Shown here one piece after another: positions 50,501 to 63,686 of a DNA stretch of 64,000 bases. The notes under the pieces were generated by a model that worked only from the letters and a program-made list of their open reading frames with translations, was not told the origin of the DNA and made no database searches. The DNA is from an uncultured Verrucomicrobiota bacterium (GTDB taxonomy: Bacteria > Verrucomicrobiota > Kiritimatiellia > RFP12 > UBA3636). Location: assembly GCA_937911295.1 (NCBI GenBank), contig CALDQE010000073.1:22352-86351 (forward strand), read 5' to 3'. The position numbers and the translations under genes were made by a program. Position 1 is the first letter of the stretch. Every line of letters starts with the position of its first letter.

Positions 50501-53425
50501 AAATTCATCCTTATTTAGAAGACCATCATTGTCCCAATCGTCCTCTACCTGTGGTAAGCTTAGAGGATATTGGATTGCATTAACACCAAAACCAGAATCT
50601 AGAGGATTAATACCATGGATAAGCTCCCAACCATCAAATGAACCATCATTATCACTGTCTGTATGGCGTGGGTTTGTTGTCCATGCCATCCATGTTTCAG
50701 GTGAGAAATTAAAATCTGTATTACCTAATGATAATACCTGCATATATTCATGGTAATAACCAACCATAAATTCGTCATAGTTTGAAAATGCTGTTCCTGA
50801 AATTCCAGCAATATTTGGATTATATGGAGCATATGCCACACCATTCCACTGACCTAGACCACTTGAATTTAATAGATATGCCATCAAGTGTGATGATGTT
50901 CCATCTGGGCATTGTTCTGTTGGATTTAACTTGAAAATACCATCCTCAAGAATTGCAAATTTTGCATCTACCATTTTTGGTTCAACTGCATAGGTTGCCT
51001 CAATAATTAGCATAGAATCTCTATCAGGGTTACCACCTGCACCATGCTCACCAGCAGCACTTAATGGATCAAGATAATTCAATACTTCCCAGCCATCTGG
51101 TAGACCATCTTTATCTGTATCCCAATGTAATGGATCTGTACCTAATGTATATTCCTCAACCAAGGTTAATCCATCATTATCAAAATCCTCCATTGAATAG
51201 TTATTTGGTAGTAATGGATCAAAAGCATCAAGCAATAATTGCTTAATTGTTGCCTTGTTTTCATCAGATGTATAATCATCTAACTTAAGAATTGAAGCTA
51301 TATGCTTAACAATTGAGCTATCTGTAAATTCTCTTTCTTTAAAATCGTATGAGTAGAAGTTATTGCCAAAAGCAATCCACTTATCAAATCCTACCTCATA
51401 CATAATGGTTGTCCAGAAATAATATTCCCAGCCATCACTCATACCATCACCATCTGAATCATATCCAGATAAATCTGTTTGTGGATCTTCAGCAGAAGGG
51501 ATAGTACCAGGTGAATTTCCGCGTAGAGCAGGATCTGTTTCTGGTGTTACAATCTGAACATCTGCATAACGTCTCCAAACACCATCTCCACGATCCTCTT
51601 CTAGACCACGTGCCTCAATCAAATTGTTAAATGGATTATTTTCTGATGGGAAATAACCTATCGCTGTTGGTGTTACCTTAATAGGATATTCATAAACACG
51701 AACACTTCCTACGCCTGTAACAACATTTGGTACCTCAATTAATGAAGCATTTGGTAAATAATCACCATCTGAATTACCATTTGATCCATAAATTTTTGTT
51801 GGCTGAATTGCTGCTACTGTGCTTAAATCCTCATTCTCATCATCCATTGTAATAACGGTTCCAGAATTGAAATAACGCATTTCCCACTGGTCACCCAATT
51901 GGTCAGCATCAATATCACCAAAGCCTTCACCAGGATAATATTCCTTAGAGAAGAAATATATTACTGTTCTATCTGAAATATCATCAACTGTTTCACCCAT
52001 GTGGATAAGTGTAGATTTTCCACTATGAATAATTGACTTACTTGTTGAATCAAGAACCACCTCATCATCACCAGCAGACCAACCAAATGGGAAACTACCT
52101 TCATCTGGAATTGGCTGAACTGTTACTGCTGACACAGCACTGTTACCTGTTGATGAAAAACGATTTCCTTCTACCTTCCAAGTAATACCAGCAGGCTCTG
52201 TAAATTTAAATGTACCAGAACCAATACCATTTAAACCACGCAAGCCTTTTTCTGCCTCGTTTACAAGTAAAAGTGCTCCGTTCTCTACTTCCATTTCAAA
52301 TACACGAACTGCAACACCACCATCACCATCGTCTACTGTAAGTGTAATCTGATATGTTCCAGCTTGATTATATGTGTATGTAACATTCTGTCCAGCTACA
52401 TTGCCTTTTCCATCACCAAAGTTCCAATTGTATGACAAAGGATCATATTGTGATGGAACAACATCACGAGCAGAAGCTGAGAAGGAAACTGGCTGCCCGA
52501 TTGCTGTCTTAAATGTTGTACCCTCTGCAGGTGTATCAATTGCTGGATTTTCATTATCAGCAGAAATAGGTAATATACCTATTAGTCCATTATCTCCCTC
52601 AAGAATAAGATCTGATGTATAGAAATTGTCCAATGCCTTTAGCTTTGATAATGTAACTGTATCCTTATTTGCTGGCCATGTCAAGGTTGCTGGACCAGAA
52701 ACCAATGGAAGCCCATCTGCATTTGTAGGATATGTTATTGTGTAAATAACCTTTGTTTCTGGAGCTCTATTTACTGAAATTATAACATCCTGATACATTG
52801 AGCCTTCTTCAACAGAAAGTGATGAAGGTACAAAGACTAATGAACTCTCTACCTTAATCTGAATGTAATTTGGTGCTGTAGCATCTGTTCCGTACCAATT
52901 ATTAAATTCTGTTACAGGATTTGATGGGAAGTTTGTAATTTGAGGCTTGTCATTTGTAGGAACCTTGTAAACTGAATCAGTACCTGTATCGCCATTTTCG
53001 TAAACAAGATTTGCTGTAATATTATCTTCTCCAACAAAATTTAACAATGCCTTTCCTGAAAATTGAACAAAACCTAAATCATCAGGTTGAATTGTATAGT
53101 TAAATACCATAAGAGAAGCATCACTTGTAACATATGCTGCCTTTCTAGTTACAGTACCTATTTTAAAATTCAAGGTAGGCGTACCTGTTACTGTAAAGCT
53201 TTCAATCATTGGTGTTTCACCATCAGCATTTTCTTTATCGGAAATAAATTCAAGATAGAATTTAATTTCCCCGCTAGCGAAAACAAACTGACCCTCAGGC
53301 TGTGTTTCACCATCCTCATTAACATACTGAATGCTGCTAATTAAAACGCTTGCATTTGCGAATGAAAATGCAAACATAACAAACAATAATAATGTTGATT
53401 TTATTAGTTTTTCTATATTTTTCAT
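44588..53425 (-). CDS. Giant (2945-aa) secreted cell-surface adhesin-like protein with a PKD domain, a LamG/ConA-like lectin domain and ≥13 dispersed thrombospondin-type-3-like calcium-binding motifs.
   Basis: Seen: signal peptide. PKD block YNWNFGDGKGN...YTYNQAGTYQITLTVDDGDGG (aa ~330-380, nt ~52285-52530). LamG block TVELWFK...WYHVAVSLD...FNLYLNGALI (nt ~48550-49050). Many D.D.DG(L/I/M).D..E motifs (DTDKDGLPDGWEV, DSDGDGMDDYWEI, SLDSDGDGIPDYYEI, DTDGDGVSDLEEF and others). Confidence 0.7.
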   Translation of the reverse strand: MKNIEKLIKSTLLLFVMFAFSFANASVLISSIQYVNEDGETQPEGQFVFASGEIKFYLEFISDKENADGETPMIESFTVTGTPTLNFKIGTVTRKAAYVTSDASLMVFNYTIQPDDLGFVQFSGKALLNFVGEDNITANLVYENGDTGTDSVYKVPTNDKPQITNFPSNPVTEFNNWYGTDATAPNYIQIKVESSLVFVPSSLSVEEGSMYQDVIISVNRAPETKVIYTITYPTNADGLPLVSGPATLTWPANKDTVTLSKLKALDNFYTSDLILEGDNGLIGILPISADNENPAIDTPAEGTTFKTAIGQPVSFSASARDVVPSQYDPLSYNWNFGDGKGNVAGQNVTYTYNQAGTYQITLTVDDGDGGVAVRVFEMEVENGALLLVNEAEKGLRGLNGIGSGTFKFTEPAGITWKVEGNRFSSTGNSAVSAVTVQPIPDEGSFPFGWSAGDDEVVLDSTSKSIIHSGKSTLIHMGETVDDISDRTVIYFFSKEYYPGEGFGDIDADQLGDQWEMRYFNSGTVITMDDENEDLSTVAAIQPTKIYGSNGNSDGDYLPNASLIEVPNVVTGVGSVRVYEYPIKVTPTAIGYFPSENNPFNNLIEARGLEEDRGDGVWRRYADVQIVTPETDPALRGNSPGTIPSAEDPQTDLSGYDSDGDGMSDGWEYYFWTTIMYEVGFDKWIAFGNNFYSYDFKEREFTDSSIVKHIASILKLDDYTSDENKATIKQLLLDAFDPLLPNNYSMEDFDNDGLTLVEEYTLGTDPLHWDTDKDGLPDGWEVLNYLDPLSAAGEHGAGGNPDRDSMLIIEATYAVEPKMVDAKFAILEDGIFKLNPTEQCPDGTSSHLMAYLLNSSGLGQWNGVAYAPYNPNIAGISGTAFSNYDEFMVGYYHEYMQVLSLGNTDFNFSPETWMAWTTNPRHTDSDNDGSFDGWELIHGINPLDSGFGVNAIQYPLSLPQVEDDWDNDGLLNKDEFGNSPTAVVEVTDVYDARNNLIGTAANTVVIYTPDVSKGWTERTSSTNPWNPDSDYDGLMDGLEFGEEGATEITNYDPNSVDTDLDNLPDGWEVIYGLNKFGYDPMGQGGPYGDPDCDGLANYQEYLTGANYAWQPQLMIAKNHLDMLTDPFFNPDNLEWFGYGDRYAFDIIRPRVDPVLAMSAAAAYGDIYEQFYTEFVAANPDITIKTFNDELVVISALLEIFPIPDFGLVYYYVYSKHYGSSNPDFGEGLTHSINELQRCYGQNPYNWDPAFLIDKEIAPKPLYFHTVLTTTDPMSPDSDGDGMDDYWEIFHGLNPIWGKSDPFGRFFYGTMIPIASYSYPYLSETKPWSIGSPYADVDQDGLNNREESIEVYGQDIYPDTDPTPYWITDTSYNQSHVNLYYAYGEYTTILPDKEHPAFPNNLLPELSFWPWLAKYAANAEEAPQPSFVAPQYIWDFEINEGLDTDNDNINDREECLTTDLRGLSDNKDPTDPHSRKAIYLDGIDSAMRTRIPFFHDKWAMAAYTVELWFKSENPASGKDQTLIERPVRMPIDDQTGTIETAIRRTFRIQLTPEGTIRAEFQNDAMATFSTETSIENGLIAKDTWYHVAVSLDSVNNKFNLYLNGALIKTVACDLKPCTGYFPGTQDLVVTNAVGSAQPSISYLDSFDYYPAPIVLGASEENPDGKIGTSPIYYMAGALAPNWAEPVLSDFFHGWIDEVRVWDRVRSAAEIQAAYQKSFTLDEVYAINHARFAWEEENKFPYATAIADFPQKLLYYYNFNNLPDVIIDSTRKDDSIVYPTDIQQVPLGIGERMGVPTGYQIPWWASSLVKSSVYDGDLGYIPLAENLAAHVPQYPPLSSRRFLAVFDQEYKLLGYRVRKEEDYVLYATMGAVYELEIVDPSEINLDELIDPRLINNSANPYAQVYRTGLEPQYEISLDFFSGSLYGSRNYELIPFFSDLVPLGGAVADFDTELWDGNGVGYDVSSLDSDGDGIPDYYEILMGMDPYSADGDDGAFGDLDGDGLDNYAEYLAGTSANSADTDGDGISDYFERDTEQSLTYGDMYDDGDGMPSAWELDNGLDADKFDAHEDKDADGWTNIEEYIAGTRANDTLSFPMPNITFTFHYNGDIVDVPCITVHSFSEKHAGKDMGGKLDGLWTDLPNLLSVLVQVGEDRQGVLPNTMIKAGTARLTYMTPPTVNEEGIPVPGVLTTVGESPINENQGQFEGTNFYIDYVSGVIIDGSIGGILVGQTVSLDYSYTYSFPFTKSDVMPALTEGRHLRSGNNRFFGFLDLNSDYKYDAGEPCGLSTQRPTLISVNGANVEIAMTDDLWGYPRISWGNVDSTNAPTVTADEYEVVIINPTGDSDTIKIRAPRTWLHEGDIINAGLKGIPFGTSTSPFIEYEVWAGDEMIHEGMLEWNLGVNNRRKMAIIAPVEEMNGALVEFKWQMDHRNQGAKIVIKNSAGATVYNDVILLPVRHGDLEDVDMYYSTFPQLEGGQGKFFLLPDDTYTYTITEYINGTGIKPQSVSGEFTVNNEGTPRMNYSVNGTITYFGKVHNEGTSSNIMTADGTSLVASGEIGAINPGTISFSVVNAAGDVIDTIRDTFSDGVLKGDSNENPGFGKIYYDTGKFEIRWQQPLAAGAKLNMYKKSFTKAPIIVESYVVPESSNHANGIGGTLAARMKATTKGTYSLVGMSRGKYVVRAFIDSNNNGFCDTWESEGFATLGAPLSGPIVYEAIEPIVLPNTVNGSADALNANIVIFDKDTDNDILPDSWEYQMFGDINKYSGRDYRNGIYIWQEYADGALDSDPTMVDTDSDGLSDAAEINLTFTNTHSWDTDGDGVSDLEEFLSGSNPKAADESTPYATLAVEFDENGKPFVQCPYPAVVAGNEITYYLKYKAELGAKDWQVVDTLKVAPPMVINGKLEAGTAIMRPDEALIDDWSTGFFKIDVTVDCQEFEVIHSNSTSEVIGK

Positions 53426-53468
53426 ACCTTATACCTTCTCTTATAGGTTATGTTTATTTAAAATTAAC

Positions 53469-54059
53469 TTATTCAGCTTTTTCCTCAGATGACTCTTCTG
53501 TAGCCTCTGTTTTAATAGCACGTGATTTCATATTTAAACGAACTAATTCTGAAGATTTTTTAGTTTCTTCAGATAACTGCTTTTGAATTGATTCCTTAGC
53601 TGCTACTAGCTTCACATACTCTGCATCTTCATCTATTATTTTCTGAATAGCAGCCTTTTTTTCTGTAAGCTGCTTCTCTAAATCAGCAATTTCTGTTGAC
53701 AAAACTTTTGCTTCTTCATTTGTCTTGATAATTGTATCCTTATGAGCAGCTATTTCTTTCTCTGCCTTCTCTAGATTAATTCGTATAGCTTCTGTTTTTT
53801 CCTTCTGAAGCTTCATCATTGCAATGCGCTTTGTGGTCTCTTTATCATTTTGCTTATAAAATGCATTCTTATTGTTTGCCTCTAAACGCTCTTTAATTTT
53901 TGCACGACGCTCAGCAACCTTTGGATCAACTGTGCTTTCTTCTGCAGTAGCCTCTGCAACTGCATTAGTATTGGTTGTGGTCTCTGTGGCTTTTGGCTCT
54001 TCTTTAGCAAATACAGAGAAACCAATAATAACAAATAATAAAATTAAATTTTTCTTCAT
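53469..54059 (-). CDS. Secreted Lys/Glu-rich coiled-coil protein, unknown function.
   Basis: Seen: signal peptide, then heptad-like K/E-rich sequence throughout. Confidence 0.45.
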   Translation of the reverse strand: MKKNLILLFVIIGFSVFAKEEPKATETTTNTNAVAEATAEESTVDPKVAERRAKIKERLEANNKNAFYKQNDKETTKRIAMMKLQKEKTEAIRINLEKAEKEIAAHKDTIIKTNEEAKVLSTEIADLEKQLTEKKAAIQKIIDEDAEYVKLVAAKESIQKQLSEETKKSSELVRLNMKSRAIKTEATEESSEEKAE

Positions 54060-54079
54060 ATCTGATTTTCCTAAATAAT

Positions 54080-55501
54080 TTATTGAGCTATTCGTCTAAA
54101 TCTAAAGAAACTTGAATTGATGCTTGAAGCATCATTCTGATCTACTAATATTTTTATTGGTATATTCAAGAAACATTCCTTTGTGGATGATGCTTCTGTA
54201 ACTTCTCCTGAAATATCAAAAACCTCATCACTTCCAACAAAATTATTTCCTGTAATAGTAAATTCACCTGCTGCCTCTGGTACATTTATATTGGCTTGCA
54301 ATGCTGGAGCCCATGCAGCCTCTGTTAGCTCTTTCTTATAATCTAACATATAATTACCAACTGGATTCTCCCCAGATAATGAAACAACTAAATTTGTCAT
54401 GGTTATTGCTGTAAATTTGATTTTTACATCATATTCTTCATCTGGCAAAACTTCCTCTTCTTCAGTAAAAACACGATCATCAATATTATATGCTGCTACT
54501 CGCCTATTATTACTATCCGCTACTAATATTACTGATTTGCCATCTACGCCTGTTGAACAATATGGAAAACTTAACTTTGATTTAGCTGTTCCTGAATTTC
54601 CTAGCTTCAACAAAAATTTTCCAGAATCAAAATCATATAGATTTATACTACTTGTGGCTCTATCTGTAACAACCAATGATAATTTTCCTGATTCTGTTTT
54701 CCAAATATCAACATCTGTTGGTTGAACTAAATTACTTTCTGTTGAATCATTTACTAATGGTAATGTTTTATCAAGTGCTACAGTATCAGACAAAATACTA
54801 TATACATATACTTTCTTAGCCAACACATCTGCTATTGCTAAATATTCTGATGCTCCATCTGAATAGTAATCTATTCCAGCAAATGAATTTTGGGATAATG
54901 GTGTGCCAAAATAAAAAACTTTTCCAGTAATATTATCGGTAGCCATATCCAAAAACAAAATATGTGAACCATCAGCAGCTATTGCATATACTTTATCACC
55001 TGCATTATTTATGGAAATGCCAGCATATTTATCCTCTACGGTTGCACTAAAATCAAAATCTAAAGCAACTGTCCCGTTGGTATTTTTAACTAATTTATAT
55101 ACTACAAATCTTGTATAAGTGGAAAATTGATCCATCAATACTACTAAATTCTTTTCGTTATTGTATGCTATATCATAAGGATACGAAATAACCCCATCTA
55201 TTGTTGATTGACCCTTGTGTAAAAGTAAAAGCTTGCCAGCTACATCATTACTATAAATTGCTATTGCATTTCTTCCGGCGTCTGCAACAAATATATAATC
55301 CTCTGAAGCTGCTATTCCTCGTGGGCGAGCACCGCTAACAGTTTGAGAATATTCAGCCGTTGGATTTATATATGTAAATTGAGTATATGTATCCGCATAT
55401 ATTGCAGGTACTTGATATATAACTGCAATTATATTCGCTAGTATAAGATTATGGCAAATTTTCTTTATATTACTGCCAATTATACTCATTTTATACTCCA
55501 T
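54080..55501 (-). CDS. Secreted beta-propeller protein with NHL-like repeats.
   Basis: Seen: recurring blades with motifs P.GIA / YDIAY / AGISIN / FAGIDYY / PTDVDIW. Confidence 0.4.
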   Translation of the reverse strand: MEYKMSIIGSNIKKICHNLILANIIAVIYQVPAIYADTYTQFTYINPTAEYSQTVSGARPRGIAASEDYIFVADAGRNAIAIYSNDVAGKLLLLHKGQSTIDGVISYPYDIAYNNEKNLVVLMDQFSTYTRFVVYKLVKNTNGTVALDFDFSATVEDKYAGISINNAGDKVYAIAADGSHILFLDMATDNITGKVFYFGTPLSQNSFAGIDYYSDGASEYLAIADVLAKKVYVYSILSDTVALDKTLPLVNDSTESNLVQPTDVDIWKTESGKLSLVVTDRATSSINLYDFDSGKFLLKLGNSGTAKSKLSFPYCSTGVDGKSVILVADSNNRRVAAYNIDDRVFTEEEEVLPDEEYDVKIKFTAITMTNLVVSLSGENPVGNYMLDYKKELTEAAWAPALQANINVPEAAGEFTITGNNFVGSDEVFDISGEVTEASSTKECFLNIPIKILVDQNDASSINSSFFRFRRIAQ

Positions 55502-55721
55502 TACTGTTAGTTATTTTAAAAAAATATATCACAATGAGGGTATAGTACCCCTACAAAAGATAATGCTACCATAAGATTAAATGTAAAACAATAGAAAACT
55601 AGCTTTTTTAGGGAAAAATGAGTTAATTTTTTTTTGAGGTTTATATTTATAAAATAAAAAAAACACCCCTTTTATGGAATGTTTTTTTCTTTAATAAATC
55701 ATAATTGCTTGATTTTGAATA

Positions 55722-56261
55722 CTATATTTCTTCAGAATTACGCTTTGCCTGCTCTACCCAACCTAGAACATCCTCAGTATAACCTTCTGGAAGTTCTAAA
55801 AGCTGCTTTCCACAATTACCACAGCATCCTCCTGGTGTCTGAAGCTTAACTCCACAATGAGGACATACTTTAATCAAAATTTCACCACATATCGCACAAC
55901 GATTGGAAAAGCCTGCTTTTCCTGTAGGCTTGAAATATACATTCATTCCTACTATATATGGCTTATTACTTGGACATTCAAAATTAGCACACATTGCCAC
56001 CTCTGGCTGTAATGGTGCTAAAGCTGCAGCTGTCAATACTGGTCCCATGCTCGGAATCAGTGCCGATAAATTAATTTCTAATAATTCTGCTAGCTTCTCA
56101 TAAGTAGACTCTGAAATGGCATCTACTCTGCCACCCTCCATCATACTAATTGCTGATTGCTTGCAGCCTACCTTATTTGCTATTTCTATTTGGGTAATAC
56201 CACGCTCCAATCGAGCCGCCCTTATTAGCTTTGGTAGTTGTTTTAATATTTCCTGTTTCAT
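55722..56261 (-). CDS. XRE-family helix-turn-helix transcriptional regulator fused to a C-terminal Cys-rich zinc-ribbon domain.
   Basis: Seen: HTH block LERGITQIEIANKVGCKQSAISMMEGG. C-terminal Cys pairs spaced CAIC...CPHC...CCGNC. Confidence 0.6.
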   Translation of the reverse strand: MKQEILKQLPKLIRAARLERGITQIEIANKVGCKQSAISMMEGGRVDAISESTYEKLAELLEINLSALIPSMGPVLTAAALAPLQPEVAMCANFECPSNKPYIVGMNVYFKPTGKAGFSNRCAICGEILIKVCPHCGVKLQTPGGCCGNCGKQLLELPEGYTEDVLGWVEQAKRNSEEI

Positions 56262-56517
56262 GCGTATTAGTATGCAATAAATAATATCAACAAATCAAGC
56301 ATAACTTATCAACAGCTTGTTGATATTCTGTTGATAATTATTGTTGATTACTAAATAAATATCTTAAAAACAATAACTTATATGTTATCAACAATCTTGA
56401 TAATAACCTGTTAATAAACCTATTTTAATAAATATTATTTATAAATGATTGAAGCTATTGCCTCAAAGCATAGCCTCTCTTGACACATATGGTCTATTAA
56501 ATATTAGTTATTAACAA
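56262..56517. promoter_or_regulatory. AT-rich region with a cluster of TTATCAACA/TGTTGATAA and TGTTAATAA 9-mers, including an 8-bp inverted pair. These are DnaA-box-like sites and/or operators for the adjacent regulator.
   Basis: Seen: TTATCAACA at 56306-56314 and 56385-56393. Inverse copies at 56317-56325 and 56329-56337, TGTTGATTA at 56342, TGTTAATAA at 56409-56417. Confidence 0.35.
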
Positions 56518-57951
56518 TTAATGATGCTTGCTCTCTCTGGCATCAGTTTCTAAAGCTATCTTTAACTCTGATAACCTTGATGGTAATATAAGCTCCTGCA
56601 TGGCTGCTGCTATGCTTTTTGGAGATAATGCATGTAATCTACCATATTTATTATATAAATGGTCTGCTACACGCATTATTTGCTCAAATGGCGTATTTTC
56701 ACTGAAAATATATAACCTGGAGGATAGGTTAAATCTACCACGATTGTACATTATATCAAAGCATTTAGCAAAACGCTCCATTCTTCTTAACTCAGCAAAA
56801 CTAATATCTCTAGTTGAAAGTACCTCAAATGGAGGATCTGGAGAGAATTTTAATTCGTATTTTTCTATATGCCTATACATAGCCGTACCAGGAAGAAGCT
56901 TTAATATGCCAACCTGAAGCTCAGCTGGATTTAATCCAATCAAAAAGTTAAATCCAGAGGCAATAGTTTCTATTCCTTCTCCTGGCAAACCTATAATTAA
57001 ATCAGCATGAACGTCAGCTCTAGCCTCTTCTATTAAAAATTTAAGCGTTTGTGTCGTTTTTTCACGATTTAAAGGTCGTTTTATTCGTGCAGCTATCTCT
57101 GGCTCCCAAGTTTGTATTCCAACCTCTAAATGAAGCGTTTTAGGCGGAAATGCACAAAGCCTCTGTCTCCATGCCTCATTAGGCTCCTCTGGAGTAAATT
57201 CAAAATGAAGAGTCATTCCTTCTCTATAATTTTCTCTAAAGAAATCTAATAAAGCTAATGAATGTTCCCCACCATGATTAAAGGACCTATCCAAAAATTT
57301 AAAATGAATTACCCCTCGGTTAATTAATTTTAAAAATTCACGCTTTAATGCCTCTAATGGAAAATATCTTATTCCCCCACTTCCTGCAGAAGTACAATAT
57401 TCACAAGAAAAAGGACAGCCTCGTGTTGCTTCTACATAAACAACCCTATTTGCTATATCCTTATCCTCATATAAATAATATGGTAGCTTTACTTTTGATA
57501 AATCTACTGGTTGTGCAAAAATCTCATAAGAACAAGAAGGAATATTTTTTTTACCAGACAATGCTAATTTTACAGCATCGTATATAACCTCTTCGCCTTC
57601 ACCATAAATTATTATGTCGACAAATTTTTTTAATGGCTCTGTTTCATCATAAGGTACAAGCTGTGGTCCACCAGCAATAATAGGAACATCAGGAATAATC
57701 TCACGACATAATTTGCACACTGCCACAAAAAAATCCCTGTTCCACAAATATGTTGAAAGTAGAATAACAGAAGGAGACAATGCCACAAGCCTCTCAAAAA
57801 ATTGAAGCGGTGTTGTCTCCCTTACCTCTGTCTCTATAATTAAAGCATTCTCCTCTAAATCACGAAGAGAGGCTTTAAGACACATTGAAGCAAAGGCACA
57901 ATGTATGTAGCTAGCATTACCACCTACAAATACAATATTTGTCTTTGCCAT
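56518..57951 (-). CDS. B12-binding-domain radical SAM protein (class B).
   Basis: Seen: N-terminal Rossmann-like B12-binding region (VFVGG...LLSTYLWN). CPFSCEYC radical SAM cluster. The ATG at 57949-57951 (MAKTNIV...) is the likely start. Confidence 0.7.
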   Translation of the reverse strand: MAKTNIVFVGGNASYIHCAFASMCLKASLRDLEENALIIETEVRETTPLQFFERLVALSPSVILLSTYLWNRDFFVAVCKLCREIIPDVPIIAGGPQLVPYDETEPLKKFVDIIIYGEGEEVIYDAVKLALSGKKNIPSCSYEIFAQPVDLSKVKLPYYLYEDKDIANRVVYVEATRGCPFSCEYCTSAGSGGIRYFPLEALKREFLKLINRGVIHFKFLDRSFNHGGEHSLALLDFFRENYREGMTLHFEFTPEEPNEAWRQRLCAFPPKTLHLEVGIQTWEPEIAARIKRPLNREKTTQTLKFLIEEARADVHADLIIGLPGEGIETIASGFNFLIGLNPAELQVGILKLLPGTAMYRHIEKYELKFSPDPPFEVLSTRDISFAELRRMERFAKCFDIMYNRGRFNLSSRLYIFSENTPFEQIMRVADHLYNKYGRLHALSPKSIAAAMQELILPSRLSELKIALETDARESKHH

Positions 57952-57961
57952 AGCTTTTATT

Positions 57962-58588
57962 TTAAAGCTGAGCAAATGCCTTTAACCAAGCATCAGCAAT
58001 TAATTGATGACCAGCACCACTTGGATGAACTCCATCTGGTGTCCAATGCTCCATCGCTGCCCTTGCATTTGCAGACTCAAAACTTTCATGAAGCTTTACA
58101 CATGGAAGTGAAAATTCTTTTGCTATTTTTTCCACCACTGCCTGTCGCTCATTAAGCTCAGGGAAAAAGCTTGCTATGTGATCATTAATTGGATTTGCAA
58201 ATGGAGTCATTAAAATAATTTTTATGTTAGGCAACTCCGTTTGAGTCCATTCTATTAACTCACGATAAAATCTCTCATAACGTGGAACCTCAACCCCATT
58301 TTGTCCACCACGCTCATGCCATGTATCATTAACTCCAATTAATATTGTTAAAATATCTGGAGCTATATTTATACAATCTGCCTTCCATCGAGCATATAAA
58401 TCAACAATTCTATTTCCACTTATTCCACGATTTATAATCTCATAATTTTTTTCTGGAAAATCACAAAGTAAACGATTTGCAATAAGCTTTACATAGCCTG
58501 CTCCTAAAGCACAATCACGTACACCTGTCCCTACATCTGTAAAACGACCAGCATCTGTAACTGAATCGCCTTGAAATAAAATTTTCAT
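57962..58588 (-). CDS. SGNH/GDSL hydrolase-family esterase, a paralogue of the 33630..34289 gene.
   Basis: Seen: ILFQGDSVTDAGR, GISGN, GVNDTWHE, DGVHP catalytic blocks. Confidence 0.65.
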   Translation of the reverse strand: MKILFQGDSVTDAGRFTDVGTGVRDCALGAGYVKLIANRLLCDFPEKNYEIINRGISGNRIVDLYARWKADCINIAPDILTILIGVNDTWHERGGQNGVEVPRYERFYRELIEWTQTELPNIKIILMTPFANPINDHIASFFPELNERQAVVEKIAKEFSLPCVKLHESFESANARAAMEHWTPDGVHPSGAGHQLIADAWLKAFAQL

Positions 58589-58594
58589 TTTAAA

Positions 58595-59110
58595 TTATTC
58601 CTTTTCTTTGTTTATCTGCTTTAAGCCTTCTAAAGCAAGGCGAGCATGTCTTACATTTAAATTATTACGTAAATTTTTTTCTGCTAATTCTTTTATCTCA
58701 GGTGACTTTAATATTTCATTTCTAATTTCCTGACGAACCTTAGCTAATTCTGCTGCCAGCTTTTTTTCTTTGTCGCGCAATGCATTAACTTTTTCTGAAT
58801 CATTCTGTGGAACAAATCCAATACACTTCCTTTCATATTCCATCCGTGATTTTCTAGCCTCAGCTCCTTCATCTATTATATACTTTTGAAGTGCTTCAAT
58901 TTCATTTTGTATTGCTTCGTTTGATTGCTTTGACCAATACTCTCTATATTTCAAAAAATCAGCATCTGTTCGAGGTAAATTTTTCTCTACTGTATTTTCA
59001 ATTAAAGTTGGTGTTTCAACAGGAACTGCTTCATTTAATTTTACATCTTCTGAAAATACAATTATTGAATTTAAAATAACTATGCTTACTAATAATATCT
59101 TATTTTTCAT
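58595..59110 (-). CDS. Secreted coiled-coil protein, unknown function.
   Basis: Seen: signal peptide, then E/K/R-rich helical sequence. Confidence 0.4.
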   Translation of the reverse strand: MKNKILLVSIVILNSIIVFSEDVKLNEAVPVETPTLIENTVEKNLPRTDADFLKYREYWSKQSNEAIQNEIEALQKYIIDEGAEARKSRMEYERKCIGFVPQNDSEKVNALRDKEKKLAAELAKVRQEIRNEILKSPEIKELAEKNLRNNLNVRHARLALEGLKQINKEKE

Positions 59111-59113
59111 AAA

Positions 59114-60214
59114 TTAAATTCCTGGACAAATTTCATTTGCTCGTGGATACAAAGCATCCATTTCTGCTTTAAATTGATTTAATTCAGGTGTAGGAGTAAT
59201 TTTAATATCTTCGCCACTTCCTAAATTCTTTGTGCGCCATGAATCATATTTTCGCTGTGCATCATTTAAAGTTTTTCTTGCGGTTACCTCTTCAAGCTTA
59301 AGCTTATGTATTTTATTCTCAAGATTTGCTCTTGCTGCTCCACTTGTTGTTTTACGCTTTTCCTCTAACTCATCAGATTCTTTTTTTAAATTTTTATAAA
59401 CTTTTACTGCATCATGATACTCCGTGTAATGTGGATTTTTTTTAATCTCTTCTTTGCGTAATTCAGTTAATAAGCTTTGATACTTTCCACGTGCAGTACA
59501 AAAATCAATTATTGTTGTTTTATCTGGATGTACTTTATTATTGTAAGGTCCACGGAACATTACTAAATCAGATTCCTTTATAAAAAATTCAACATCTGGA
59601 TTTATAATTCCATCCTTTATTTGATGACATTGTATCAATGCAACATTCTTCATAAATATATGATCTCGCGTCTCTACTACAATACCACCTAAAATAGAAC
59701 CAATTTTATTTTTTTCTTTATTATAAATATCAGTATTAACTGCAACTACAGCCCAATTTGGTCCATCATAATCTTCTGGAATTTCTGGCTCTTCAAATAC
59801 CTCTTCCTCTACTACCTCAACTGTCTGCTGAACAGCTGAATCTGGTTCAACTACCTCTGTGCTATCACTTGTCTCTTTTGGCTTATTTGAATCACCATCT
59901 ATAAGTTCTACTACCTTACGTTTTGTTGATGTAAATACAGATTCTACTGCTACCTTTTCTATTTTTGTTTCTTTAACTTCAGATGATTCTTCAAAATCAT
60001 TTAAATCTTCTTCTATGTTTACTTCAACATTATTCATAGAACTATCTAACAAAACTATTTCTTTTCCAGTAACTCTTGAATAAATTTCTTTATTATAAAA
60101 ATCTGGCGAAAATGATTTCAAAAAATAAAGTACAGCACCAAATATTACAATAAAAATTATTGTCCTGATTATCGAAGAAATAATAAATGATAAATTTACT
60201 TTAAACATAATCAA
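59114..60214 (-). CDS. Membrane-anchored protein with an acidic linker and an uncharacterised C-terminal domain.
   Basis: Seen: N-terminal TM helix (IIRTIIFIVIFGAVLYFL), a Glu/Val-rich linker, and a C-terminal coiled-coil. No family recognised. Confidence 0.4.
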   Translation of the reverse strand: MIMFKVNLSFIISSIIRTIIFIVIFGAVLYFLKSFSPDFYNKEIYSRVTGKEIVLLDSSMNNVEVNIEEDLNDFEESSEVKETKIEKVAVESVFTSTKRKVVELIDGDSNKPKETSDSTEVVEPDSAVQQTVEVVEEEVFEEPEIPEDYDGPNWAVVAVNTDIYNKEKNKIGSILGGIVVETRDHIFMKNVALIQCHQIKDGIINPDVEFFIKESDLVMFRGPYNNKVHPDKTTIIDFCTARGKYQSLLTELRKEEIKKNPHYTEYHDAVKVYKNLKKESDELEEKRKTTSGAARANLENKIHKLKLEEVTARKTLNDAQRKYDSWRTKNLGSGEDIKITPTPELNQFKAEMDALYPRANEICPGI

Positions 60215-60236
60215 TTAGCCTTAAAAATTTTTAAAA

Positions 60237-61466
60237 TTAGTTATTATCTATTTTTGAAAAAGCATCTGCAAATGAACCGAATGATGAACTCTGCTTACGA
60301 GATTTTTCTATATACTCACGAGCCTCTAACTCTTGCTTTTCTTGCTGCTCATCACTTTCGCTTGTTTTTGCTGCTTCATCTAAAACTTCAACTACATGCA
60401 ATGAAATTTTTCTTTCATCATAATCTATATTGTCAATTTGTAAATCCAACTGCTGATCAATTTTAAAATATAATCTTGGATCGCTAATACGATGCTTTAA
60501 ACCAAGCTTTGATATATGGACAAATCCCTCTACTCCACAATCAAGCTCAACAATTACTCCAATTTGTAATAGCTTAATTATTTTTCCTGTTAAATAACTA
60601 CCAACATCATATTCAGCCTCAAATAAATTCCATGGATCCTCTTTAGCATCTAATAAACTAAATGAAAAACGATTATTTTCCCAATCAAGAGAAATAATTG
60701 TAACACTTACATTCTGTCCCTCAGATACTACATCCTCTGGCTTCGTATTTTTGTTCCATGAAAGCTGACGTAATGGAATCAATCCTTCAACTCCACCTAT
60801 ATCTACAAATACTCCAAAAGGCATTATTTTTGTTACCTTACCAGTAACTTGATCACCCTCTGAAAGCGTCTCCTTTAATGCATTACGCTTTTCAATTGCA
60901 TCTCGCTCCTGTAATGCACGATGACTTACCACCAATGTACGATCCTCTGGCTCATATTCAGTAACAAGAAAATTCATTACTTTGCCAATATATAAATCAT
61001 TTGGTTCATCTCGACGCTTATTCTTATCGATTTGTGAATATGGACAAAATCCTCGCTGACCACAAACTATTACCTCATACCCACCATTTATTTCTTTTTC
61101 TACCTTGCCCTCTACTGGAAGCTTTGTTGTATACGCTTGTAGTATTGATTGATTTGCTACTGAACTATTGCTTCCAGCACTAGCAGTAAATCTAGCAGAA
61201 CCATCTCTTACCTCTACAAAATATACTTCAATTACATCGTTTGGTTCAGGTAATGGAATATTTGTATCCCATTGATTAGTATCAATTACACCTTGAAGCT
61301 TTGAGTTTACATCAAGTACAATATAATCATCTGTCACTGAAATTACTGTACCTCTTACCTTTTCTCCAGGATTAAACCCTCTACGTAAACCCTTCATCTG
61401 CTCATCAATCTCATCCATTAATGCTGCCATAGCTTGAGATTTTAATCCTCTTTTAGGTGTAATCAT
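60237..61466 (-). CDS. S1 RNA-binding-domain protein (about four S1 repeats, short ribosomal-protein-S1-like) with an acidic C-terminal tail.
   Basis: Seen: repeated S1-type blocks (G.V..V...GV.V.L..GV.G..H.S.L). 409 aa. Confidence 0.6.
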   Translation of the reverse strand: MITPKRGLKSQAMAALMDEIDEQMKGLRRGFNPGEKVRGTVISVTDDYIVLDVNSKLQGVIDTNQWDTNIPLPEPNDVIEVYFVEVRDGSARFTASAGSNSSVANQSILQAYTTKLPVEGKVEKEINGGYEVIVCGQRGFCPYSQIDKNKRRDEPNDLYIGKVMNFLVTEYEPEDRTLVVSHRALQERDAIEKRNALKETLSEGDQVTGKVTKIMPFGVFVDIGGVEGLIPLRQLSWNKNTKPEDVVSEGQNVSVTIISLDWENNRFSFSLLDAKEDPWNLFEAEYDVGSYLTGKIIKLLQIGVIVELDCGVEGFVHISKLGLKHRISDPRLYFKIDQQLDLQIDNIDYDERKISLHVVEVLDEAAKTSESDEQQEKQELEAREYIEKSRKQSSSFGSFADAFSKIDNN

Positions 61467-61520
61467 TTATACCCTCTCAAAATATTTTTTGGTTATATGA
61501 GTATCTGTTTTTATAACTTA

Positions 61521-62609
61521 TTATCCACGCAATGGCATAATAACATACAAGAATGGAATGTCACTCTTGATTAGTCCAGGACTGGATTCTTTATTTAATT
61601 CAATATAAATTACATCGCTAGTTAAATTACGCAATGGATCCATCATAAATTCTGGATTAAATATTGTTATAATCTCTGGACCCTCATATTTAATAGCAAT
61701 TGTATCCAATGCTTCACCAACTTCAACTGCAGTTACTGAAATTGTAAGCAAATTATCAGCAAAGCATAAACGCATTGAATTTGATGTCGGTGTTGTAGAT
61801 ACTGACATACGCTTCAATACAGCTAATAGCTCTTCTCTATTGATTTCAATTCTATAATCACATTTTGCTGAAACAAATTTCTTAAAGTCTGGATATGAAC
61901 CACTCAATACTTTACTTGAAAGTGTTAAATCTCCAAATGTAAATATTGCCTGATTTTCCTTAATAATAATCTCAATGTCTCCCTCAGTACCCAAAACTCT
62001 TATTAGTTCTTGAACTGCTTTAGTAGGAAGAATTGAATCACGATTATTTTCCACAGGGAATTCTACCTCTGTCTCATATAATGCTAATCGACGGCAATCT
62101 GTAGCAGCACAAATTAATTTGCTATTCTCAAAATTCATCATAACTCCATTTAGAATAGCTCTTGAATCATCTGTTGATGCTGCATATACTGTCTTTTTAA
62201 GCATATCTAATAATCTACCTTGTTGAAGTGTATATGAAACTCCTCCATCAAGTGTTTGTTTTGCAGGAAATTTATTTGCTGGTATACCAAGTATCTTTGA
62301 ACGATATGATCCACAACTCATACTAGCTGTCTCATCTGAAGCATCAATCGTTACAACTCCACTAGATAGCTCGTGAACAATACCAGTTAATTTACGAACT
62401 GGAAGTGTTATTTCACCTTGCTCAACAATTTCAGCCTCACAACTATATTCCATAGTCATATCTTGAGTTGTTGTTCTAAAGAATATCTTATCCTCAGAGG
62501 TATAAATTAATACATTTGAAAGAATTGGTTCTGTTACCTTTGTTGGTACTATATTTTGAACCTTAGCTAGTGCGTTATACAATGTTGGTTGAGGTATTCT
62601 TATTTTCAT
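61521..62609 (-). CDS. dnaN: DNA polymerase III beta sliding clamp.
   Basis: Seen: three-domain clamp length (362 aa), N-terminal MKIRI...L, C-terminal ...YVIMPLR typical of DnaN. Confidence 0.85.
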   Translation of the reverse strand: MKIRIPQPTLYNALAKVQNIVPTKVTEPILSNVLIYTSEDKIFFRTTTQDMTMEYSCEAEIVEQGEITLPVRKLTGIVHELSSGVVTIDASDETASMSCGSYRSKILGIPANKFPAKQTLDGGVSYTLQQGRLLDMLKKTVYAASTDDSRAILNGVMMNFENSKLICAATDCRRLALYETEVEFPVENNRDSILPTKAVQELIRVLGTEGDIEIIIKENQAIFTFGDLTLSSKVLSGSYPDFKKFVSAKCDYRIEINREELLAVLKRMSVSTTPTSNSMRLCFADNLLTISVTAVEVGEALDTIAIKYEGPEIITIFNPEFMMDPLRNLTSDVIYIELNKESSPGLIKSDIPFLYVIMPLRG

Positions 62610-63190
62610 AACTTGTCCCAGATTTTTTATTCACAGTCGATTTATAAACAATTGCTAATATTATACTATATTAAAAAATTATTACAATAGTAGTATTAGA
62701 ATATTTAATAACTTTCGCAAATTAATATTAACTACATGAAAAACAATGCTTTAATTATTTTTATAAGATGTTGATAACCTTTTGATTATTTTTTAATAAC
62801 TGATGACTTATAAACAATGTTGTAATTAACTTCAAGTTATTAACAGGGTTAATATCAATTTATTAACATGTTATTAACAAGTAATTAAAATTTCAACCAT
62901 TGCAATAAACCACCATTTATATATGTAATTTTACACTTTTTTTAAAATAAAATCAATAGAGTAATATGTTTAGAATACTAAAATTATTTAATAAAATTTT
63001 ATAAATGAGTTATATTACCTTTGTTTTATGAAAATTATGCCAGTTTTAGGTATGTGAATTAGATTTTTTTCTAAATATCATACTTATAATTTTATTAACA
63101 AATATTTGGTATTTATTAACAAGTTATTAACAGGTTTATTATGATAATGCAGTAAAAATCAAAATATTGTAATATATACTCAAAATTATA
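62610..63190. other. Candidate chromosomal replication origin (oriC): an extremely AT-rich non-coding region upstream of dnaN with multiple DnaA-box-like 9-mers.
   Basis: Seen: TTATTCACA (62628-62636, consensus-perfect) and TGTTGATAA (62769-62777). TTATTAACA at 62837, 62860, 62871, 63092, 63113 and 63125. A near-pure AT stretch at 62640-62760. Inferred: consistent with the ~35:3 minus-strand gene bias to the left. Confidence 0.4.
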
Positions 63191-63194
63191 TATT

Positions 63195-63440
63195 TTTCAT
63201 TTTATTATGATATAGACGCGAGACGATTGTGCGACGATAGACGCTAGACAACCGAAGACTCGAGACGCTAGACGTTGAACGGACATGAGACGCTTAGACG
63301 ATAAGACTCCTCATCGCGTTGACACGCGACCCATCCTGCGTTGACACGCACCCTTGAGACATTAGACTAGAGACTAGAGACATGAGACACTGACAATAGA
63401 TAAAAAGCCAATTAGACAGCGAACGGACACGAGACAATCA
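63195..63440. repeat. T-poor, GC-richer block with ~12-13-bp periodic AGAC(G)/GAGAC/TAGAC motifs, including a direct repeat GCGTTGACACGC x2. Cryptic tandem repeat of unknown function.
   Basis: Seen directly: about 15 AGAC-anchored units. GCGTTGACACGC at 63316 and 63338. Composition is sharply different from the adjacent AT-rich DNA. Confidence 0.45.
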
Positions 63441-63686
63441 GACTGCGAGTGCTAACGATTGCTAGTCGCGTTGCTTGTTGCTTTCGCTAACACGGAGTAC
63501 GGAGGACAAAGGAGAATTGTGCCAACAATCATTCCAGTACCCCACATCACCTCTCCGTGTCTCCGTTCTCAGGAAAATCACACTACGTGTGCTCCGTGTT
63601 TCGCCGAAGGCTATAGCGTCAGCTTGAAATCTGTCTTATCGTCTAATTGATGGAGTCGCCCAGTGTTTTAGAGCAAAAGGCGGCAA

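Follow-up and report, generated by a model that had tools for sequence, protein, structure and literature searches.

Box cluster upstream of the XRE/zinc-ribbon gene

In the window (the whole 64,000-nucleotide stretch of DNA that was analysed), a 256-bp intergenic spacer at positions 56262-56517 is bounded by the stop codon of a radical-SAM gene (56518) and by the ATG of a gene encoding an XRE/zinc-ribbon regulator (56261-56259, minus strand). The G+C content of the spacer is 23%, and nine 9-mers with at most one mismatch from TTATCAACA are located inside it (Table 1). An earlier note on this DNA had recognized the cluster, which is real, but counted only five to six copies of the 9-mer; the inverted pair TATCAACA-gct-TGTTGATA that it described is indeed present at 56307-56325. 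Position 6 is A in all nine boxes, where the canonical DnaA box has C, and the canonical box TTATNCACA / TTWTNCACA is matched by none of the nine. With up to one mismatch allowed, TTATCCACA matched within the spacer the three TTATCAACA boxes only. A scan of the whole window against Rfam gave no match, so no known RNA element accounts for the spacer.

Table 1. Features of the regulator promoter and of the dnaN region, with box counterparts in related loci (nt from the regulator ATG)
Feature	Position	Strand	Remark	Counterpart
XRE/zinc-ribbon regulator gene, 179 aa	55722..56261	-	N-terminal HTH_3, flexible linker, eight invariant Cys, C-terminal helix	
Putative -10 element CATACT	56269..56274	-	7 nt before ATG	
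Box 1, ATATCAACA (TGTTGATAT in gene direction)	56284..56292	+	first 9 nt of 18-nt -35/-10 spacer	-31 in L003, L004, L013, L014
Putative -35 element TTGATT	56293..56298	-	corresponds to CTTG element conserved in regulator family	
Box 2, perfect TTATCAACA	56306..56314	+	7 nt upstream of -35; tight inverted pair with box 3	-53 in L003 and L004, -52 in L005
Box 3, ATATCAACA	56318..56326	-	inverted-pair partner of box 2	
Box 4, perfect TTATCAACA	56329..56337	-	head-to-tail run; 11 bp to box 3, 13 bp to box 5	-76 in L003 and L004, -73 in L005
Box 5, TAATCAACA	56342..56350	-		
Box 6, perfect TTATCAACA	56385..56393	+	distal module	-131/-132 in L003 and L004, -128 in L005
Box 7, TTATCAAGA	56395..56403	-	G-type variant	
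Box 8, TTATTAACA	56409..56417	-		-154/-156 in L003 and L004
Terminator-like hairpin	56449..56466	-	ends radical-SAM transcription unit, setting it apart from XRE promoter	
Box 9, TTATTAACA	56508..56516	+	2 nt from radical-SAM stop codon, beyond the hairpin; probably outside the promoter array	
dnaN	61521..62609	-		
AT-rich spacer upstream of dnaN	62610..63220	.	nine TTATHAACA boxes, some in head-to-tail runs with 11-bp period	

Exact copies of TTATCAACA were found six times in the window (1.44 expected), three of them in the spacer. For TTATHAACA, 20 copies were detected against 5.9 expected, with five in the spacer and nine at 62642-63132. The latter cluster belongs to the same 9-mer family, as the earlier note had claimed, but the two differ at position 5, which is C in seven of nine boxes here and T or A in eight of nine upstream of dnaN (Fisher p = 0.015). 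The low G+C content of the spacer might favour a chance build-up of an AT-rich word, but this reading is refuted by shuffling and by the enrichment upstream of orthologous genes (see below), and its probability is negligible. Dinucleotide-preserving shuffles of the 256 bp yielded 0.24 boxes on average and three at most, with nine reached in 0 of 2000. Furthermore, the spacer has the highest box density of any 256-bp stretch in the window; other equally AT-rich stretches hold at most one box each, with the exception of the region upstream of dnaN, and boxes are retained in genomes of 50-68% G+C.

Promoter architecture and its conservation

A sigma-70-like promoter (TTGATT-18 nt-CATACT-7 nt-ATG) is predicted in front of the regulator gene, surrounded and overlapped by boxes. 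One box is placed within the -35/-10 spacer and one beside the -35 element, and others follow upstream at about one helical turn from each other. Because CATACT precedes the ATG by only 7 nt, the regulator mRNA may be leaderless or nearly so, as is the lambda cI mRNA transcribed from PRM.

We then compared 80 orthologous loci from Kiritimatiellia, Lentisphaerae/Victivallales and Verrucomicrobia. On average, 4.15 boxes were present per 300 bp upstream of the gene versus 0.081 elsewhere in the loci (a 51-fold enrichment), and at least two upstream boxes were detected in 70 of the 80. The core TTATCAA occurred in 69/80 upstream regions (3.0 expected) and CATACTA in 32/80 (0.3 expected). The more relaxed pattern [CG]ATA[CA]T was present in 63 of 81 upstream regions, beginning 13 nt upstream of the ATG in eight of them, including the clade of the window. 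When the 63 loci were aligned on this -10 element, a conserved CTTG appeared 17-22 nt upstream of CATACT, tandem boxes abutted the CTTG, and one more box was located in the -35/-10 spacer or just 3' of CATACT. The box consensus at the regulator promoter is gTTAT[C/a/t]AAC[A].

Orthologues with 81%, 61%, 38% and 36% identity, residing in differing gene contexts and in genomes of up to about 66% G+C, all hold boxes at near-constant distances from the ATG (-76, -53, -31, -132 and -156). The array thus accompanies the XRE/zinc-ribbon gene across non-syntenic contexts, including non-origin sites. From this, we infer that the cluster is a conserved operator array of the XRE/zinc-ribbon gene promoter, widespread in the PVC superphylum.

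The regulator family

The regulator consists of an N-terminal XRE helix-turn-helix and a C-terminal double zinc ribbon. In Pfam, only HTH_3, HTH_31 and HTH_19 scored above cut-off, DZR_2 remained below it, and no NCBIfam model reached its own cut-off. When the AlphaFold model was compared with PDB by Foldseek, only the helix-turn-helix was matched convincingly (C.BclI, HipB, SinR); for the double zinc ribbon, no solved structure was matched. An unbiased HMMER search provided 138 representatives of as many 50%-identity clusters, and the family as a whole comprises about 150 such clusters and corresponds to no named family. The recognition helix is strongly conserved, with its residues retained by 79-98% of sequences (Q 125/127, S 109/127, A 106/127, S 121/127, M 100/127), and such a near-invariant helix implies an invariant target.

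Relation to the replication origin

As one of the possible explanations, the earlier note proposed that the two clusters of the window form a bipartite origin, the present one being its second half and the pair bracketing dnaN together with five further genes. Two clusters of the same family, 6 kb apart and one of them adjoining dnaN, would fit such an arrangement, but the proposal was contradicted by skew. In this strain (L008), both GC skew and gene orientation flip in the gidA-dnaN spacer, about 7 kb from the array; the skew-defined origin lies within this spacer, which includes 62610..63220, and the six genes between the two clusters carry the skew sign of the right-hand replichore. A run resembling the DnaA-trio, the unwinding element defined in PMC8287927, adjoins dnaN at 62688-62699, but no TAG/GAT-type trinucleotide run was seen on reading 56262-56517. 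Moreover, the boxes of the array are placed relative to a promoter, and the array accompanies the XRE gene at loci of uniform skew that contain no replication genes; no skew flip was detected at arrays far from dnaN in other genomes. In three GC-rich relatives (L079, L087 and L089), a local minimum of cumulative skew does occur 0.1-0.9 kb upstream of the XRE start, but only that of L089 falls inside the array or close to it. Cumulative skew over loci of 10-20 kb is too noisy to locate origins in GC-rich relatives, in which the minima fell variously at gidA, in the dnaA-dnaN spacer, or close to the XRE gene and past it. The origin of the host genome does not include the array, and a bipartite origin is very improbable.

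Still, the regulator gene is often found close to replication genes. It is located within 10 kb of gidA, dnaA or dnaN in 21 of 80 cases (about a third of lineages), and the string dnaA-dnaN-rlmL-XRE was observed at 16 of the 80 genes, with gidA also inside the locus in 12 of these 16. The earlier note had left it to be checked whether the motif is specific to the origin or occurs at background frequency. In the window, its clusters are confined to the two described; 1.18 Mb of related DNA contained clusters at XRE promoters and 36 clusters outside them, most of the latter in dnaA, dnaN or gidA spacers. In related genomes, the same 9-mer marks the skew-defined origin as well as dnaA promoters, dnaA-dnaN spacers and the region preceding gidA. 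The dnaA-dnaN spacers contain abutting boxes, and canonical boxes are nearly absent from them.

In related loci, the palindrome TTATCAACA-N5-TGTTGATAA is present within 260 bp 5' of the first in-frame ATG of dnaA; in metagenome loci, it lies about 80-110 bp from the inferred start. As a marker of dnaA promoters the palindrome was rejected: only 12 of 120 matches in a metagenome scan adjoined dnaA, so it is not diagnostic alone. The remaining matches fell at ku genes in high-GC contigs, at a transposase and among AT-rich chance matches.

The dnaA gene of the host was found neither in the 64-kb window nor in the further stretch covered upstream of the origin in L008. In DnaA proteins of related lineages (16 from neighbouring loci and 6 from metagenomes), the motif R432-D433-H434-T435-T436-V437 of E. 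coli reads K-[T/S/N]-H-A-T-[V/I] in 22 of 22 cases. Two of six base-contact residues are therefore replaced, namely D433 by T, S or N and T435 by A. The six residues are those listed in PMC7561715 and PMC2533591, and PMC8235120 assigns D433 to box position 7; all three papers cite the study of the DnaA domain IV-DNA complex. Because both residues are replaced, an altered DnaA box is plausible in these lineages.

Candidate readers of the boxes

Since the same 9-mer occurs at the dnaA promoters, the dnaA-dnaN spacers and the skew-defined origin of relatives, DnaA-dependent regulation or titration via the array, which the earlier note had listed among its alternatives, is plausible. In its strict form, this would mean that DnaA alone reads the array: lineage-variant DnaA boxes would control the regulator gene and incidentally soak up DnaA, and the regulator itself would act on another operator. 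The alternative is that the array is bound by the regulator, with or without DnaA. The evidence bearing on this choice comes from box geometry, box variants and the recognition helix.

As for geometry, head-to-tail pairs are spaced by 10-12 bp, convergent pairs by 23, 11 or 9 bp and divergent ones by 14 bp. No single dimer geometry dominates these spacings. Tight inverted pairs occur as the pair noted above in the window and as CTTGATATTATCAAG in L036 and L057; otherwise, orientation and spacing are variable. Such mixed orientations and several spacings fit DnaA-like monomeric recognition better than a rigid XRE dimer. The 11-bp head-to-tail arrays point in the same direction, as head-to-tail pairs with a 2-bp gap were called the optimal arrangement for a DnaA filament (PMC8235120). 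Furthermore, the promoter boxes are weakly constrained at positions 1, 5 and 9, which are also the weak positions of canonical TTATNCACA, and strong DnaA boxes would vary in this way. Palindromes of TTATCAACA also flank dnaA in other phyla where DnaA is canonical or near-canonical (L104, L153, L194 and L200). All this argues for DnaA and, except for the last point, against the regulator as reader.

Box variants argue otherwise. In eight lineages, the array is made up of TTATCAAG boxes (46 8-mers of this kind versus 1.3 expected), which to our knowledge resemble no known DnaA box. These TTATCAAG-only arrays and the compact TATCAAG palindromes, present as two copies of CTTGATATTATCAAG each in L036 and L057, occupy the same promoter positions, whereas 52 of the 53 origin-type boxes have C at position 8. 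Positions 3 or 6 were varied in 23 of 53 origin-type boxes but only in 3 of 99 XRE-promoter boxes from the same 16 genomes (p = 7e-10). In the AT-rich clade of the window, position 5 has remained C at the XRE promoter but shifted to T or A in the origin boxes. Promoter and origin boxes of the same genomes thus differ in their variant spectrum, which disfavours DnaA as the sole reader, although DnaA of changed specificity could be present in the G-type lineages.

The regulator as reader is also suggested by its recognition helix, whose near-invariance would be expected of a protein with an invariant target. The array is absent in 5/5 relatives with an altered helix (Q[S/P]Q[I/V]S) and present in 70/80 loci with the canonical one (Fisher 9e-5), a comparison confounded by phylogenetic distance and comprising five variant cases only. 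One of the variants, L217, contains a different palindrome instead. Finally, no other conserved motif fit to be an operator of its own was seen at the regulator promoter among the orthologous loci, which speaks against DnaA as the sole reader.

Weighing these observations, we lean towards the reading in which the regulator binds the array itself and represses its own gene, DnaA probably sharing the sites; binding by DnaA alone, the main rival, is less likely. A third DNA-binding protein, such as an origin- or nucleoid-associated factor reading the boxes at the regulator promoter, dnaA and the origin, is improbable. The sequence fixes the sites and not their reader, and the motif is common to several promoter and origin regions, yet two obvious candidates already have links to these sites and DNA-binding domains suited to them, and no further conserved gene accompanies the array in the 80 loci, where only gidA, dnaA, dnaN and rlmL recur, in a minority of cases. 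The earlier note had also suggested autoregulatory operators of the XRE protein which merely happen to resemble DnaA boxes. Autoregulation is the part of that suggestion best supported by conservation, helix and variants; an accidental resemblance is improbable, because the gene is linked to gidA, dnaA or dnaN in about a third of lineages.

According to the favoured reading, with the regulator bound to its own array, the protein would bind the boxes cooperatively on one face of the DNA, occluding and thereby shutting its own promoter. DnaA would be expected at most of the array's sites too, since the box is the 9-mer of dnaA promoters, dnaA-dnaN spacers and the origin; such sharing would couple regulator expression to replication and to how much free DnaA is present. 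Conversely, the regulator might be able to occupy DnaA boxes at dnaA and oriC. More tentatively still, the XRE/zinc-ribbon protein could be a PVC-specific regulator of replication initiation which uses the DnaA box as its operator, acts at the dnaA promoter, the origin and its own promoter, and competes with or gates a diverged DnaA; we regard this as a conjecture with less than even prospects.

Comparison with known systems

In B. subtilis, the sda promoter is controlled by DnaA. The DnaA-box clusters of this bacterium, including that of sda, share several properties with the array: dense initiator-type 9-mers, an intergenic promoter at a distance from the unwinding site, a position in front of a small regulator gene and frequent proximity to the origin. 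Stable DnaA-binding regions with many boxes exist there outside oriC (PMC2533591), a precedent for reading by DnaA alone. The present system differs in its box (TTATCAACA here, TTATCCACA there), in the use of TTATCAAG boxes by some lineages, in the altered contact residues of the lineage's DnaA and in its downstream gene, which encodes a DNA-binding protein whose family carries the array (70/80 loci). The E. coli datA locus serves for DnaA titration and inactivation; it has about five boxes over about 1 kb, requires IHF and does not serve as a promoter operator. It too is a non-origin cluster of DnaA-type boxes, and like it the array, with nine boxes in 256 bp at a non-origin locus, could sequester the initiator. 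Unlike in datA, the nine boxes span only 235 bp, with phasing around the predicted -35/-10.

On the side of the regulator, phage 434/lambda cI and Cro, C proteins of restriction-modification systems, HipB and SinR share with it the HTH_3 fold and several sites overlapping their own promoter. These repressors bind palindromes of fixed spacing as dimers, whereas here asymmetric 9-mers occur in either orientation and at varied spacings, and the protein carries a C-terminal double zinc ribbon in addition. The MqsA antitoxin combines an N-terminal zinc module with an XRE helix-turn-helix. It thus resembles the regulator as a small autoregulator (presumptively so here) uniting a zinc-binding module and this fold, but the domain order is reversed, no toxin partner gene adjoins the regulator gene at this locus, and there is no sequence or fold match. 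Origin-occupying factors that compete with DnaA are represented by Spo0A (whose boxes overlap DnaA boxes in B. subtilis oriC), CtrA (at the Caulobacter origin), MtrA and HP1021. If the regulator reads the boxes, it would likewise have sites in common with DnaA, both at the dnaA promoter and at the origin, near which its gene is encoded. We know of no such factor that has the DnaA box as its own consensus, or that is of the XRE/zinc-ribbon type.

Significance

The literature searched yielded no work that deals with how replication is controlled in Kiritimatiellia, Lentisphaerae or Verrucomicrobia. No work was found joining the DnaA box with Akkermansia, Kiritimatiellae, Lentisphaerae or Opitutus, and searches pairing DnaA box and oriC with Verrucomicrobia returned only genome reports and surveys of other organisms. 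Literature matches to the 9-mers themselves were mostly unrelated; among those mentioning DnaA is origin work on Thermoanaerobacter and Cyanothece, in which TTATCAACA also occurs.

The recurrence of the array across the superphylum, often near replication genes, points to a previously undescribed link between a regulator and the start of replication. Several handles on this link are offered by the present data: i) the variant initiator box TTATCAACA, paired with DnaA replaced at the otherwise highly conserved D433 and T435, ii) an unnamed regulator family whose promoter carries the densest array of the box, and iii) the recurrent string gidA-dnaA-dnaN-rlmL-regulator. Should the regulator prove to read DnaA boxes, we would know of no earlier transcription factor with the site of the initiator as its consensus. 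If DnaA alone reads them, the family would represent a deeply conserved group of DnaA-controlled regulators, similar to sda of Bacillus but spanning several phyla. The lineages concerned include Akkermansia and many polysaccharide degraders of gut and rumen, and orthologues present in contigs labelled Akkermansia (L074 and L077) provide a possible experimental route.

Box array upstream of the regulator gene

The 256-bp spacer between a radical-SAM gene and the gene of the XRE/zinc-ribbon regulator contains nine 9-mers with at most one mismatch from TTATCAACA (boxes), starting, in gene direction, 255, 156, 142, 132, 89, 76, 65, 53 and 31 nt upstream of the regulator ATG. This is far beyond chance: dinucleotide-preserving shuffles of the 256 bp gave 0.24 boxes, with nine or more in none of 2000, and no other stretch of the window equals this density. 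Exact TTATCAACA occurred six times in the window (1.44 expected), three times inside the spacer; TTATHAACA occurred 20 times (5.9 expected), 14 of them either here or in the dnaN-upstream spacer. The 9-mer cluster described in the earlier note is thus confirmed, and is stronger than had been claimed.

Features of the array spacer and its flanking genes
Feature	Position	Strand	Remarks
Array spacer	56262-56517		between radical-SAM stop and regulator ATG
B12-binding radical-SAM gene	56518-57975	minus
Regulator gene, 179 aa	55722-56261	minus	N-terminal HTH_3/XRE domain and weak double-zinc-ribbon match
Terminator-like hairpin	56466-56449	minus	closes radical-SAM unit
Putative -35, TTGATT	56298-56293	minus	direct reading of sequence
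Putative -10, CATACT	56274-56269	minus	direct reading of sequence

As the hairpin closes the radical-SAM unit, the boxes at 56284-56417 lie in a separate promoter region. The order of the predicted promoter is TTGATT, an 18-nt spacer, CATACT, 7 nt and ATG, and an mRNA starting from it would be leaderless or nearly so. One box (56292-56284) occupies the start of the predicted -35/-10 spacer, and another (56314-56306) stops 7 nt upstream of the putative -35.

Conservation of the array among relatives

Homologues of the regulator were traced into their contigs, and TTATCAAC/GTTGATAA boxes were present upstream of the gene in all four: a syntenic 81% homologue (L003), a 61% homologue adjoining a glycosyltransferase and a copper-ATPase operon (L004), a 38% homologue downstream of a GDSL lipase (L005) and a 36% homologue adjoining an ABC transporter in a genome of ~66% G+C (L006). 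Box-to-ATG distances in L003, L004 and L005 nearly match those of the window. Scanning one genome per species, we found the gene in 94 species and used the best 80 loci, which belonged to Kiritimatiellia, Lentisphaerae/Victivallales and Verrucomicrobia, including Akkermansia-labelled contigs; the closest relatives among these 80 were Kiritimatiellia MAGs (81-82% identity), which places the window in that class.

De novo 7-mer counts in the 300 bp upstream of the gene revealed TTATCAA in 69 of the 80 regions (3.0 expected), TATCAAC in 67 (2.4 expected) and CATACTA in 32 (0.3 expected). On average, 4.15 boxes were present per upstream region, versus a background of 0.081 per 300 bp in the rest of the loci. 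In an alignment anchored on CATACT, two boxes in head-to-tail order directly adjoin a conserved CTTG (-35), which is followed by CATACT 17-22 nt downstream, and an extra box lies within the -35/-10 spacer (clade of the window) or just 3' of the -10. Distances between neighbouring boxes favour about one or two helical turns, in any orientation. The array is a cis-regulatory array of the regulator gene and, as judged from sequence comparison, a deeply conserved promoter operator of this uncharacterised regulator.

Regulator orthologues with a full box array were also found on contigs labelled Akkermansia muciniphila and Akkermansia sp. (L074, L077). If these labels hold, Akkermansia could serve as a study system for the regulator and its array.

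The same 9-mer at dnaA, dnaN and gidA

By tblastn, dnaN was located inside 20 of the 80 loci, and gidA, dnaA or dnaN inside 21 (19 of the 54 whose upstream flank is 6 kb or longer). The string dnaA-dnaN-rlmL-regulator was common to 16 loci, 12 of which also included gidA. In the dnaA-linked genomes examined (48-65% G+C), the palindrome TTATCAACA-N5-TGTTGATAA lies no more than 260 bp before the first in-frame dnaA ATG (in metagenome loci of the same type, ~80-110 bp from where dnaA is inferred to start), dnaA-dnaN spacers harbour abutting boxes, e.g. TTGTCAACA+TTATCGACA, and gidA is preceded by single boxes; hardly any canonical TTWTNCACA occurs there. Outside XRE promoters, 36 box clusters were detected in 1.18 Mb, mostly dnaA/dnaN/gidA sites. 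Genomic position and motif both link the regulator with dnaA, dnaN and the origin.

We compared 22 DnaA proteins, 16 of them regulator-linked (L020, L030, L031, L035, L047, L049, L070, L072, L076, L078, L079, L086, L087, L089, L090, L091) and six from metagenome loci (L139, L154, L166, L193, L212, L216); one exceeds the NCBIfam DnaA equivalog cut-off. All 22 carry K-[T/S/N]-H-A-T-[V/I] in place of E. coli R432-D433-H434-T435-T436-V437. Base-specific contacts are made by R399, P423, D433, H434, T435 and H439 (PMC7561715, PMC2533591), and D433 reads box position 7 and is described as highly conserved across all bacterial classes (PMC8235120). Two of these six residues, D433 and T435, are replaced in every one of the 22 proteins, and P423 varies in some; a literature search found nothing on D433/T435 replacement in these DnaA. 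Given the replaced contact residues, box specificity may plausibly have shifted in these phyla. The TTATCAACA-type 9-mers would most simply be the DnaA boxes of these phyla, DnaA having been read in relatives.

The palindrome TTATCAACA-N5-TGTTGATAA was also observed directly upstream of the NHEJ gene ku (Pfam Ku, 6e-53), at 3657-3679 of L121, where the canonical-type box TGTGGATA follows, and in 14 other metagenome loci (60-71% G+C); this is an unrelated use. At least 12 further contigs of 44-46% G+C, several labelled human gut metagenome, carry it beside one conserved stretch (L099, L118, L126, L133, L158, L159, L167, L174, L178, L197, L205, L206). The sole open reading frame of this stretch looks spurious, and the stretch could be a non-coding element conserved in a single gut species.

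Location of the origin

Over positions 45722-63570 the window matches metagenome contig NODE_37 (loci L001, L008) at 100% identity, and L008 runs past dnaN into gidA, recA and ftsH, all on the opposite strand. GC skew is negative on the left side of the gidA-dnaN spacer and positive on its right side, the cumulative minimum falls inside it, and genes diverge from it. The spacer contains nine TTATHAACA boxes, with 11-bp-period runs at 62833-62888 and 63112-63141. On the minus-strand side of dnaN, TAG TAG TAT TAG (62688-62699) represents 3'-GAT-5' repeats, the DnaA-trio consensus (PMC8287927). This trio-like run is 3 nt away from the weak box ATTTAATAA; the stretch (62688-62711) shows 100% conservation in L003, a 78%-identical relative, and makes a candidate unwinding element of the origin. 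Because of the skew flip, diverging genes, boxes and trio-like run, we place the origin region in this spacer.

At 56.3 kb, the array is already ~7 kb into the right-hand replichore, and the six genes between the two box clusters have the skew sign of that replichore. With the skew minimum in the gidA-dnaN spacer, the bipartite origin proposed in the earlier note is rejected. The array as an origin module was likewise dismissed: in loci without dnaN and with at least 4 kb on both sides, origin-like skew (negative left, positive right) was not seen at the array; in most of these loci the skew kept one sign, and in two it was opposite, terminus-like.

Between the origin boxes and gidA, a GC-richer stretch (63220-63650; 8740-9400 in L008) contains degenerate GAGAC/AGAC heptads, including five TGAGACA at 63355-63389; Rfam gives no match to it. 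Similar low-complexity runs ('cacggagacac', 'ctctgtg') are found upstream of gidA in L031 (560-760), a relative at ~40% protein identity. The NODE_37 identity ends at 63570; the remaining positions (63571-64000) hold a GH130 mannoside-phosphorylase gene (3' end), whereas gidA takes this place in L001/L008. The switch reflects either an assembly junction or a strain rearrangement within the repeat-rich stretch.

Candidate readers of the array

Both DnaA and the regulator itself fit as readers. That DnaA binds the array seems quite probable: its boxes are identical to those at the origin and dnaA, they form head-to-tail pairs with 2-bp gaps and mixed orientations, and most variation among promoter boxes falls on positions 1, 5 and 9, which are also the weak ones in the canonical box. 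Binding by the regulator is also rather likely, an own-promoter array being what autoregulated XRE proteins usually show. Neither the 7-mer counts nor the anchored alignment revealed another conserved motif in the regulator promoter.

A HMMER search without word index (E <= 1e-30) gave 148 representatives, one per 50%-identity cluster, 138 of them full-length. The recognition helix is near-invariant (Q 125/127, S 109/127, A 106/127, S 121/127, M 100/127), which implies an invariant DNA target. The array was kept in none of five relatives with a changed helix, versus 70 of 80 (Fisher 9e-5), although these variants are phylogenetically distant. One of the five (L217, ~1120-1160), with helix QPQIS, lacks TTATCAACA boxes and has instead a perfect palindrome, ATCATAAAAT-N5-ATTTTATGAT, upstream of the gene.

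In eight lineages the array is built of TTATCAAG boxes (46 such 8-mers versus 1.3 expected), whereas 52 of 53 origin-type boxes have C at position 8. This favours the regulator, but DnaA of these lineages could differ in specificity. In two AT-rich ones, the compact 15-bp palindrome CTTGATATTATCAAG replaces the usual boxes, twice in L036 (9047-9061 and 9133-9147) and once in L057 (4878-4892, as an overlapping pair, with more TTATCAAG-type boxes nearby). The variant spectra also differ within the same 16 genomes: positions 3 or 6 vary in 23 of 53 origin-type boxes versus 3 of 99 promoter boxes (p = 7e-10). In the AT-rich window clade, position 5 is C in 7 of 9 promoter boxes and T or A in 8 of 9 origin boxes. 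Both observations point to the regulator; however, origins may need deliberately weak sites, with strong DnaA sites kept at the promoter.

Binding by both proteins is the most likely single scenario; that the consensus site of the regulator is the DnaA box itself is less likely than not. DnaA-dependent regulation and XRE autoregulation, both raised in the earlier note, stand as candidates, the former on the shared 9-mer and the latter on helix and variant spectrum. As read from its boxes, which lack C at position 6, the array does not qualify as a canonical DnaA-box cluster; nor does it qualify as a classical fixed-spacing XRE operator. It may work like an autoregulated XRE operator, a DnaA-box cluster, or both at once; the DnaA-box cluster of the B. 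subtilis sda promoter is one possible parallel.

Regulator protein and its neighbours

The AlphaFold model of the regulator (mean pLDDT 82.7) predicts a four-helix helix-turn-helix domain (residues 3-60), a disordered linker (72-83), a beta-rich zinc-ribbon module and a C-terminal helix. Eight invariant Cys form the basis of the zinc-ribbon module. Flexible linkage of the helix-turn-helix to a possibly dimerising module could make variable box spacing tolerable. Foldseek against PDB matched only the helix-turn-helix convincingly (C.BclI, HipB, SinR), no NCBIfam model reaches its cut-off, and the family is unnamed, appearing in public records as 'helix-turn-helix domain-containing protein'. A 2945-aa secreted protein with PKD, bacterial thrombospondin type 3 and laminin-G domains (44588-53425, minus strand) is encoded 2.3 kb downstream of the regulator gene, with NHL-repeat and coiled-coil proteins between them.
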